NCBI GenBank assembly: GCA_027487585.1
Contig: JAIYDH010000385.1
Coordinates: forward strand, 43-64,042
From: Rubrivivax sp.
GTDB taxonomy: Bacteria; Pseudomonadota; Gammaproteobacteria; Burkholderiales; Burkholderiaceae_C
Direction: 5' to 3'
Length of the DNA stretch: 64,000 nucleotides
The notes below the pieces were generated by a model, which saw nothing but the letters and a program-made list of their open reading frames with translations, was not told where the DNA came from and made no database searches. The position numbers were made by a program, and so were the translations under genes. This document shows, piece after piece, positions 16,962 through 19,619 of this stretch (its first letter is position 1; the number at the start of each line of letters is the position of its first letter).

Positions 16962-19619
16962 TCAACTGGCCGCTTTTGGCAGGGACAGCACACGCCACAG
17001 CAGCGCAATCATCACCACGAAAAAAACCAAAGCCAGTACCGAGTTCTGTCCCTTCAGCACGGCCAGTGCGGGGTCGCAGGTCAGCAAGAGCAGGAAAACC
17101 GTGCCGGCCATCAGGCCCAGGATCACCATGGCGGGCAACACCTGCCGCGCACGGTTGCGCACGAAGCAGCTGCGCCAGAACAGCGCCGCCAGGACCAGTG
17201 TGGACAAGACCAGTGCTTGCAGCGTCAACCTGAACCACAGGCGGTGGGGGCAGACGAAGGTACACAGGCCCTCGGTCACGCCTTCGCGCTTGCCGTAAGA
17301 CTCCTCCAGCGCTGCCCGGGCGTGGTTGCCGTGGCCCACGTCGCCCACCGGCAGGGCCCACAGGCTGACACCACCGAAGTTCCACTGCATGTAGGCCACA
17401 TCGTCCCTGAGCTGCTTGTCGGCCTCTTCACTCAAGGGTTTGGTGGCCGCACGCGACACCAGCAGCACGGGCACCATGCTTTTCAGCAGGGCCACGCGGT
17501 CGGCGCCCCGTACGCTCTTGGACGCGTCCAGCTGCTCGCGCAAGAGCTTCTTGAAGTCACTTGTGGGCTCGGAGGTCAGCACGAGGAACTTGACCTCCAC
17601 GTCCAGCGCCAGCATGTGACGGCCTTCGCGGTCGTTGAGGATTTCCATGCGCCGCTGCTCGATCTGCTCCCGCTCCAACACCCGCTCTGTGAGCTGAACA
17701 ATGCGCCAGAGGTTGCCGACACTGAAGGCGCTGTTGTCGCGCACCAGATGGTCCGGCACCACGATGTTCAACCGGTAGGGCCTGGGCGCGCGCGGCTCCA
17801 CTGCGCGGGCCACCTTGGCCTTTTCTGCGCCAGCGCCGCCTTTGCCCTTCTCCGAAGTGGGCTTGGATTCGGGCGCAGACGCAGGGGCAGCCGAGTCCTC
17901 GGCGGAACGCCGCATCTGCGCAATCACCGAGCGCACAAAGTCCTGCAGAAACTGGGCGTAGGCCTGGTGATCGCGTTCGGTGACAGTGTTGTCGTCGAAG
18001 AACACGGTCAAGCCCGTGAAGGCCCAGGGCGCGTCACCCAGAAACGTGGGCAGCAGGCCATTGAGCCAGGCTTCTTTACCTTGCAGCGGGGTCTGCAGCA
18101 TGCGCACGGCTTCACCTGCGCTGCGCCTGACGAAGTCGGCCCTGCGTTGTTCTGTCCAGTCGGCCAACCCGACCCAGTTGCGGCGGTAGATACCCAGGTC
18201 AACGGCCACGTTGTGGCGCTGTGCCTGACGCACAAAGTCCAGCCGGCCTGGCGTGGGTGCGGTGGAGAAGTCGCCTTCATCACGTAGCACAGCGCCCATG
18301 GCGGTGATTCGGGTCAGCTGGCTGAAGTCCACTTCCTGCTCTTTCGGGCCGCCGTTCCACCAGCCGAGGATGCCGTAGACCTCGTCCGACGGGCGGCTGA
18401 CCGCGCAACCACAGTTGTCCGCGGGCGTCAGCTTGATGGCCTGCGCGGTCTCCAGGGGCCGGCCTTTCTCCGCCGCGTCCACGATCTTCTGGGCCAATTG
18501 CGGGCCCAGCAGCTCGGCATAGAACCTGGTCAATGGCAGCTCCTTGGGCCGCGCGGCAGGCAGTGCATAGGGACTGACCGCATCCGAGGACGTCTCAGCC
18601 GTCTTGGCAACCCGGGCTGCACTCTTCAGGGCCAAGGCGTCGTGCAGCAGCGTCAACGCACGCAGACCCGCACTGACACGCGCGTTGCCCGGCAGCGACC
18701 CTGCACTGCCGGGCTTGGGCGGGCAGCTGGAATCGATGCTTTTGCCTTGCTCGACGGCAATGGTCTCCACCATGGTGCGGTACAGCTGGCACACGCTGCT
18801 CTGCAAGGCCAACCACATCTGCATCTCGGTCGGAAACTCAACACCGATCAGCGGTTCCAGAATCCTCTGCAGCTGGTCCTCGGTCGGCAGGCTGGGCTCT
18901 TCACCCCGCTCTTTGGCGTCCATGGCCAGTTGCAGCTGCTCTTCGGTAGGCGTCACCAGAGTCTTCACATCCTCTTCGGTCAGTTGCCAGACACGTGGCG
19001 CGTCCAGCTTCAGTCCTGGCTTCTGGCTGAGGCTGGACGTCTTGACGGAAGGCGCCGGCGGCGGCTGCTTGATCGCCGCTGCGCTGCGCTTGCGCACGCG
19101 GATCAGATAAGCCTGTTCGGTCTGCACCTCGCCGACCAACAGGCGCAGGGTAAAGCGGTAGTCGTCGGCCAACTCGCTTTTCCCGCGCAGCACACCTTGT
19201 TCGTCGATGTGCATGCCGGGCGGCAGCTTGCTGTCATCGAAAACCAAAGTGAAGGGCGCGCCGCCGGACTGCACCAGCGCCAGCGGCGTGATCTCGCGGC
19301 CTTGATCGGCCACCACCAGCGTCACTTGGCGGTAAACGAGCTTGGCGGCGGCAGCCGGGGCCGCGGAGTTCACGGCGGGGCTGGCGGGTCGGGAAGCGGC
19401 TGCGGCAGGCACCGAGGGTGATGCAGGGGTTGGGGCCACAGCGGCCTGGCCGCTTTGCGCCACGGCCGTCTGCGCGCCGGGTGCGCCCGGTACAACCGGC
19501 ATCAATGCGGTCAAGAGCGCGGCCCATAGCGCCGGATTGCGCCAGCTCCCCAGGAGCAGGCGGCGCCAGTGTGTGCACGGGCCACAGCGTGTCTGCGCTC
19601 GGAACTGCGGCTTGTTCAT
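16962..19619 (-). CDS. Exported, membrane-anchored protein with putative Ig domain and GH18-like barrel
   Basis: Signal-like N-terminus; 'LPPGMHIDEQGVLRGK...YRFTLRL' Ig repeat; 'VYGILGWW...VDFSQLTRI' GH18-like; three C-terminal TM helices; ATGA overlap with the ATPase stop. Confidence 0.6.
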   Translation of the reverse strand: MNKPQFRAQTRCGPCTHWRRLLLGSWRNPALWAALLTALMPVVPGAPGAQTAVAQSGQAAVAPTPASPSVPAAAASRPASPAVNSAAPAAAAKLVYRQVTLVVADQGREITPLALVQSGGAPFTLVFDDSKLPPGMHIDEQGVLRGKSELADDYRFTLRLLVGEVQTEQAYLIRVRKRSAAAIKQPPPAPSVKTSSLSQKPGLKLDAPRVWQLTEEDVKTLVTPTEEQLQLAMDAKERGEEPSLPTEDQLQRILEPLIGVEFPTEMQMWLALQSSVCQLYRTMVETIAVEQGKSIDSSCPPKPGSAGSLPGNARVSAGLRALTLLHDALALKSAARVAKTAETSSDAVSPYALPAARPKELPLTRFYAELLGPQLAQKIVDAAEKGRPLETAQAIKLTPADNCGCAVSRPSDEVYGILGWWNGGPKEQEVDFSQLTRITAMGAVLRDEGDFSTAPTPGRLDFVRQAQRHNVAVDLGIYRRNWVGLADWTEQRRADFVRRSAGEAVRMLQTPLQGKEAWLNGLLPTFLGDAPWAFTGLTVFFDDNTVTERDHQAYAQFLQDFVRSVIAQMRRSAEDSAAPASAPESKPTSEKGKGGAGAEKAKVARAVEPRAPRPYRLNIVVPDHLVRDNSAFSVGNLWRIVQLTERVLEREQIEQRRMEILNDREGRHMLALDVEVKFLVLTSEPTSDFKKLLREQLDASKSVRGADRVALLKSMVPVLLVSRAATKPLSEEADKQLRDDVAYMQWNFGGVSLWALPVGDVGHGNHARAALEESYGKREGVTEGLCTFVCPHRLWFRLTLQALVLSTLVLAALFWRSCFVRNRARQVLPAMVILGLMAGTVFLLLLTCDPALAVLKGQNSVLALVFFVVMIALLWRVLSLPKAAS

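Follow-up and report, generated by a model that had tools for sequence, protein, structure and literature searches.

A predicted SalCis20-family membrane protein with a degenerate GH18-like barrel in a putative SalCIS-type injection system operon of Rubrivivax sp.

Background

The closest described system to the locus studied here is the contractile injection system (CIS) of Salmonella enterica subsp. salamae (SalCIS). The structure of its membrane protein is deposited in the Protein Data Bank (PDB) as 9R9A, and the preprint (10.1101/2025.06.01.657177) calls the protein SalCis19, the journal article (Nat Commun 2026;17:5272, PMC13266070) SalCis20. We analysed a 64,000-nucleotide stretch of Rubrivivax sp. 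DNA (contig JAIYDH010000385.1; hereafter the window), which contains a CIS operon with a gene for an 885-residue protein (16962..19619, minus strand) predicted to be a relative of SalCis20. The protein family was already published, with a structure, in 2025-2026, and this gene is a distant member of it, not a new kind of component. In our reading it probably, though far from certainly, encodes a SalCis20-type accessory membrane protein of a SalCIS-type CIS, acting as a membrane dock that binds glycan or peptidoglycan and not as a canonical hydrolase.

SalCis20 has a predicted Sec signal, its residues 1-42 are missing in mass spectrometry, and its localisation to the envelope needs the signal sequence (PMC13266070). 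It was solved at 2.73 A as a homodimer with three transmembrane (TM) helices per monomer, and its periplasmic domain folds like SleL, a cortex-lytic enzyme of B. cereus (4S3J), with a negatively charged pocket (PMC13266070). In tomograms, SalCIS bundles are seen at the inner membrane, and release was not detected (PMC13266070). The authors propose cell-wall remodelling together with a transient link to the baseplate via SalCis13, draw an analogy to MltE of the type VI secretion system (T6SS), and mark the mechanism as unresolved (PMC13266070).

Another membrane protein of this kind is CisA, from the CIS of Streptomyces coelicolor, which has one TM crossing, a 285-residue cytoplasmic N-terminal region and an outer domain like a substrate-binding protein (eLife 2025;14:RP104064). 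CisA and the protein described here are alike in that each is a membrane protein whose gene accompanies a cytoplasmic CIS, exposes a domain on the outer side of the cytoplasmic membrane and is a proposed link between particle and membrane. However, the protein of the window has three TM helices, a domain like those of glycoside hydrolase family 18 (GH18) and almost no cytoplasmic part, and we saw no sequence relation between the two. SalCIS-type loci contain no homologues of the T6SS membrane complex (PMC13266070). The T6SS membrane complex with MltE is a parallel in concept, with a contractile machine that is fixed to the inner membrane and must have a way through peptidoglycan, although the proteins and folds are unrelated. 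To our knowledge, the canonical loci of the antifeeding prophage (Afp) and the Photorhabdus virulence cassettes (PVC) have no such gene.

Gene and family membership

The region has ~66-68% GC, and long spurious open reading frames (ORFs) are common at such values, so we checked the coding frame. GC at third codon positions (GC3) peaks in the frame of the 885-residue ORF over its full length, including the C-terminal part that another ORF overlaps. The best homologue was found at E=1e-146 and the homologues comprise 308 cluster representatives, so this ORF is not a product of chance; ORF list, translation, GC3 and homology all identify a genuine gene, present as a single copy in the host genome. 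Its ATG (19619-19617) shares an ATGA with the TGA (19618-19616) that ends the AAA+ ATPase gene, an overlap read directly from the DNA, as an earlier sequence-only reading of this stretch had stated.

The family assignment comes from comparison with the SalCis20 structure. A phmmer search with the single protein matched 9r9a_B at E=1.7e-5, and a profile of six homologues matched it at E=1.2e-21, as the one solved structure found. The alignments to 9R9A fall into two stretches –the barrel and the TM domain– and span the GCGC motif, strands beta1-beta4, beta8 and the TM domain. From these alignments we identify the 885-residue protein as a predicted homologue of SalCis20 and member of its family. 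Both proteins have the homologous GCGC motif, a GH18/SleL-like barrel, a three-helix membrane domain and a long signal-like N-terminus, their lengths are 885 vs. 864 residues, and each gene belongs to a CIS operon and lies close to one for a DUF4157 protein. On the other hand, the pairwise match is weak and only parts of the proteins align. Pfam and NCBIfam assign no family to the 885-residue protein.

The surrounding locus resembles SalCIS too. The sheath protein (36924..38627, minus strand, as are all genes of the operon given below) has the SalCIS sheath 9r9h as its best solved relative (E=1.1e-184), compared with 1e-102 for AlgoCIS and 1e-88 for the cyanobacterial thylakoid CIS (tCIS). The Cis11-like baseplate protein of 1279 residues (28440..32279), which matches Pfam Baseplate_J, is closest to SalCis11 (9rce_A, E=3.9e-104). 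Since both proteins match SalCIS best among solved structures, we classify the window locus as a predicted SalCIS-type CIS. Moreover, a DUF4157-bearing effector is present in all operons of the SalCIS cluster (PMC13266070), and the DUF4157 protein of the window occupies its place. The two loci differ in layout: the SalCIS operon is bidirectional, so that Cis15 and two further genes had to be turned round for tandem expression, whereas here the ATPase gene is co-directional and overlapping. The ~68% GC of the present host genome is a further difference.

The gene order tape measure, AAA+ ATPase and membrane protein was found in the window and in every informative homologue locus. It is kept on five metagenome contigs with the homologue P0002 and a contig with P0003; at nine genome loci of Rubrivivax, Rhizobacter, Pseudorhodoferax and Piscinibacter, obtained in a related-locus search that reached Burkholderiales only; for three distant members, whose genomes have 44-59% GC; and for five further representatives with 21-28% identity. 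The sole variation is one locus with an inverted ATPase gene, which is the same bidirectional layout as in SalCIS. The gap to the ATPase gene is at most ~21 nt in the homologue loci, and the 4-nt overlap recurs in three of them (L052, L053 and L055). Thus, the association with CIS genes put forward in the sequence-only reading holds: each informative homologue locus lies inside a CIS operon, and we did not find homologues mostly outside such loci.

The 308 representatives come from an exhaustive search at E<=1e-10, and some of them were matched only via the immunoglobulin-like (Ig) domain. A word-indexed search performed poorly because low-complexity words and Ig repeats dominated it, giving six relatives from the single protein and nothing new from a 50-sequence profile. 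True family members occur in four of the 401 genomes sampled from the phylum; within the taxonomic family of the window, 4 of 151 genomes have them. The family is sizeable yet patchy.

The barrel and its altered catalytic motif

Residues ~396-760 (17340..18434) form a GH18-like (beta/alpha)8 barrel that opens with an invariant G-C-G-C. In the AF2 model, built from 14 sequences with a mean predicted local distance difference test score (pLDDT) of 63.5 and values of 70-90 in the folded parts including the barrel, eight beta strands alternate with helices. The sequence-only reading had described a TIM-barrel-like region here and suggested Foldseek as a check; GH18 chitinases, SleL (4S3J) and the chi-lectin BRP39 came out on top, at E=1e-5 to 1e-3. 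9R9A was absent among the Foldseek matches listed; the likeness to its SleL-like domain is one of sequence homology. We take SleL to be a GH18-family N-acetylglucosaminidase, in agreement with the GH18 chitinase fold matches obtained here. The SalCIS article names it an N-acetylmuramoyl-L-alanine amidase (PMC13266070).

At the sequence level, the Pfam model Glyco_hydro_18 (PF00704) had no match at E<=10 in the whole protein or in the isolated domains of four members, and a whole-genome scan with this model found nothing. The expected position of the catalytic DxDxE had been read as 'FTGLTVFFDD', and this placement stands: residues 534-543 (17991..18020) lie on strand beta4 and correspond to a degenerate GH18 DGxDxDxE. 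The motif reads T535-G-L-T538-V-F540-F-D542, with the first Asp replaced by Thr, the second Asp by Phe and the Glu by Asp. Three observations support the mapping: the alignment with 'DGITLDIDL' of SalCis20, the model strand at 536-541, and an alternative hhalign alignment in which it falls on 'FDGiDIDwE' of 11 genuine GH18 domains. The global mode of hhalign gave a meaningless alignment.

The alteration extends through the family. Of 113 full-length family representatives, 94% have Thr in place of the first Asp. At the second Asp position nearly all have Phe, Tyr, Met or Trp, and not one has Asp. Where GH18 enzymes have Glu, 65% of the representatives have Asp, 21% have Glu and the others a different residue. 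Strand beta4 reads T-x-D-x-D in SalCis20, compared with T-x-F-x-D here, and more distant members have T-x-Y-x-P (G077), T-x-D-x-R (G159) or T-x-D-x-D (the SalCIS-like L039), so the 'catalytic' positions appear to drift between subclades. On these alignments the GH18 DxDxE seems degenerate family-wide, a point that goes beyond the published SalCIS article.

Substrate-assisted catalysis by GH18 enzymes requires both the middle Asp and the Glu. The motif lacks the middle Asp and usually the Glu, so canonical activity is unlikely for the protein itself and for most of its family, and the comparison suggests a chitinase-like domain that is usually without the canonical catalytic residues. The aromatic residues have been preserved: in the alignment, W482 and W754 coincide with Trp residues of GH18 ('SxGGW' after beta3 and the end of beta8, respectively), and these two and W421 are at least 97% conserved. 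The (beta/alpha)8 fold and these aligned Trp positions are what the protein shares with GH18 hydrolases and chi-lectins (SleL 4S3J, Rhizomucor RmChi1 7FBT, BRP39 5XEP), and the altered catalytic motif with retained aromatics is a chi-lectin trait. It differs from them in its motif, the failure of PF00704 and a weak profile-profile score, and in the added Ig domain, helical region and three-TM membrane domain. Binding of glycan or peptidoglycan is favoured over cutting because the motif is degenerate, the Trp residues are conserved and some members carry modules like PG_binding_1.

The same fold can be read as that of an active membrane-tethered peptidoglycan hydrolase that opens the wall locally for insertion or firing of the CIS, the role proposed for SalCis20 with the MltE analogy. 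We regard this as doubtful. The likeness to cortex-lytic SleL and GH18 chitinases speaks for it, as do an acid at the catalytic Glu position in ~86% of members, the negatively charged pocket of the SalCis20 prototype and the PG_binding_1 modules of some members, which many muralytic enzymes also have. However, both Asp residues of DxDxE are gone in this protein (Thr and Phe), the second is found in 0 of 113 representatives, and some members have Pro, Arg, Lys or Thr instead of the acid itself. The Pfam GH18 model recognises no member tested, and no activity is reported for the SalCis20 prototype.

A disordered insertion rich in Ala, Lys, Glu and Pro interrupts the barrel between helix 4 and strand 5 (residues ~575-612; 17784..17897). 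It is seen as alignment gaps and pLDDT <50, and is limited to this protein and its closest homologues, the P0002 group.

The predicted exported region

Ahead of the barrel, the protein has a signal-like N-terminus, an Ig domain and a helical region, and the first two agree with the layout given in the sequence-only reading. By a heuristic reading of sequence and hydropathy, the signal-like part (residues 1-54; 19458..19619) comprises a basic n-region at 1-28 with C12-x-x-C15, a hydrophobic stretch at 29-44 and a putative cleavage site at ~54, between AVA and Q. The n-region is unusually long for an export signal. A Tat signal was considered from 'RRLLL', which fits the consensus poorly.

The CxxC within the n-region (window 19575-19586, residues 12-15) stands just ahead of the hydrophobic stretch and occurs in 27 of the 113 representatives, which form the subclade nearest this protein. 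Its conservation is odd for a peptide expected to be cleaved off.

After an Ala/Pro-rich low-complexity linker (residues 55-94; 19338..19457), with pLDDT <50 and poor alignment among homologues, residues ~95-178 (19086..19337) form a single Ig domain, putatively of He_PIG type. It is a beta sandwich in the AF2 model and Foldseek matches it to Ig domains (SraP, Robo1 Ig5). Homologues match Pfam He_PIG (PF05345) at E=6e-8 to 6e-5, whereas the 885-residue protein itself has no match; the family profile matches He_PIG-repeat giant proteins of other genomes exactly over the Ig region. The Ig module is a difference from the SalCIS side, since the Pfam Ig model has no match in the SalCIS-like member L039.

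Across the family, 85 of 113 representatives have an Ig-like N-terminal module and 19 a PG_binding_1-like one, with one PG_binding_1 match above the Pfam cutoff. By these assignments the module is apparently either an Ig or a PG_binding_1-like domain, swapped between members, which is also beyond the published SalCIS article. The PG_binding_1-like modules would tie the periplasmic part to peptidoglycan. L039 (G346:C2) has a long Ser/Thr-rich low-complexity linker at ~270-345.

The helical region that follows the Ig domain (residues ~205-395; 18435..19007), predicted to be periplasmic, was delimited from the alignment and the secondary structure of the model. It has conserved C277 and C299 and a 'PL.DVEYPT' motif.

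Membrane domain and topology

The C-terminal membrane domain (residues ~783-885; 16965..17273) consists of C786-x3-C790-P, three TM helices, an Arg-rich loop at 816-826 and a C848-D849-P850 loop, as delimited by hydropathy, model and 9R9A alignment. The three hydrophobic helices seen in the sequence-only reading are borne out: hydropathy peaks lie at ~796-816, 827-847 and 860-880, where the model has long helices, and 94 of 113 family members have three such peaks. The 816-826 loop bears four Arg. From the positive-inside rule, we infer that this loop and the short C-terminal tail are cytoplasmic, and that the large N-terminal part is periplasmic. Accepting this orientation, ~730 residues and the C848-D849-P850 loop would be periplasmic, and the cytoplasm would see a loop of ~11 residues and a few C-terminal residues.

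C786, C790, R793, R797, D849 and P850 are conserved in the membrane domain, which appears from the alignment to be more conserved than a plain anchor would need. Almost no other part of the protein could be reached from the cytoplasm, so the membrane domain is the likely contact with the CIS, probably via a partner.

The conserved R793, R797, D849, P850 and Cys pairs also bear on another explanation, in which the protein is an envelope sensor or trigger. Its Ig and pseudo-GH18 domains would sense a glycan cue or damage to the wall, and the membrane domain would pass the signal on to make the CIS fire, a function like that of CisA. Apart from these residues, which exceed the need of a plain anchor, the sensor-like periplasmic modules swapped between members would suit such a role, and CisA is an example of a membrane protein that a cytoplasmic CIS needs in order to fire. 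Yet the protein has no homology to CisA and lacks its 285-residue cytoplasmic domain, and no finding of this study bears on firing, so we hold a sensor to be distinctly unlikely. A related idea is that a GH18 barrel that is dead throughout the family reads the state of the wall and, with the three-helix domain, triggers when and where a membrane-docked injector fires. This is unlikely as well; if true, 'putative hydrolase', as the prototype is labelled, would misdescribe most members.

Proposed role

In the docking model that we favour, the ATGA overlap would lead to co-production of the protein with the assembly ATPase. The N-terminal signal would export ~730 residues –Ig domain, helical region and barrel– into the periplasm, and the conserved three-helix C-terminal bundle would hold the protein in the inner membrane. 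The barrel, which seems to keep the GH18 fold and the sugar-stacking Trp residues and to have lost Asp-x-Asp-x-Glu, would most likely bind glycan strands of peptidoglycan with no GH18-type cutting. The protein may then mark or hold the envelope site where the cytoplasmic injector docks, with the membrane domain as the contact, possibly together with a partner. The anchoring function is a model even for the SalCis20 prototype.

Several points weigh against this reading. Against GH18, hhalign in local mode scores weakly (E=0.01, probability 4%) and places beta4 correctly in an alternative alignment only, so that the motif mapping leans on weak profile alignments and on where a strand falls in the moderately confident model (pLDDT 63.5). 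Asp is retained at the second position in SalCis20 and its nearest relative here, an acidic residue is found at the Glu position in most members (~86%, as above), and the barrel has further conserved polar residues (D474, N618, R694, R708, D740 and Y743). A non-canonical hydrolytic site is possible because of this usually kept acid and these other polar residues, and an enzymatic assay is unreported even for the SalCis20 prototype. Regarding docking, the minimal cytoplasmic exposure makes direct contact with the baseplate hard to picture without a partner. A 280-residue protein encoded in the operon is a candidate for such a partner and may be the counterpart of SalCis13.

The sequence-only reading had named an envelope anchor, a glycan-binding receptor or a release factor, and had concluded that the CIS would be cell-associated. 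The anchor, the glycan binding and the cell association amount essentially to the published SalCis20 hypothesis, and the release factor is the least supported of the three. As a lysis or release factor, the protein would resemble an endolysin or holin and free assembled particles from the producer. Extracellular CISs have to exit the cell that makes them, membrane helices and a fold of muralytic type occur together in the protein, and no other lysis gene is annotated in the operon. But the catalytic residues are degenerate, and SalCIS particles are at the inner membrane, with release undetected. We consider a release function very improbable.

Neighbouring genes

The gene whose stop overlaps the start of the membrane-protein gene encodes the AAA+ ATPase, which is Cis15-like (19616..20959; Pfam AAA E=8e-28). 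Next to it lies the CIS tape measure protein (20943..25160; Pfam CIS_TMP E=7e-104), followed by the Cis12-like baseplate protein (25157..27604), with PDB sequence matches to tCIS All3315, Alg12 and SalCis12. The tape measure is very long (1405 residues, and 839-1877 residues in related loci), which fits the very long particles reported for SalCIS. The operon also includes a tube protein and a VgrG-like spike.

The conserved 280-residue protein is encoded between Cis11 and Cis12 (27601..28443). Its position is kept in the related loci whose fetched DNA extends that far, among them a SalCIS-like locus of 47% GC. It had no PDB sequence match, and its fold matches were weak only, to the N-termini of phage tailspikes and to T4 gp9.

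On the other side of the membrane-protein gene is the DUF4157/eCIS_core gene (16288..16923; Pfam eCIS_core E=1e-12). The ORF list gave a longer, 365-residue ORF at this place (16288..17385), which shares 424 nt with the 3' end of the membrane-protein gene in another frame. We rejected it as a true gene in the overlap (16962-17385): GC3 there follows the 885-residue frame, and the DUF4157 gene begins at 16923. The eCIS_core/DUF4157 domain is confined to the downstream part of the ORF, and the true start is the ATG at 16923, with GGAG upstream and 36 nt past the membrane-protein stop. The upstream extension of the 365-residue ORF is a high-GC artefact.

A response regulator of NarL/LuxR type adjoins the CIS operon (40157-40954, minus strand). 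In L055, a locus of a distant relative, the DUF4157 gene is followed by a HisKA_3 kinase and a response regulator (14036-15462), and in L006 a receiver domain comes after the DUF4157 gene. A dedicated two-component switch may be part of this CIS type.

Conclusions

As the link by which cytoplasmic CISs of the SalCIS class would find and cross their own envelope, this family is the best candidate. Its apparently degenerate motif shifts the experimental priority, placing binding assays ahead of hydrolysis assays.

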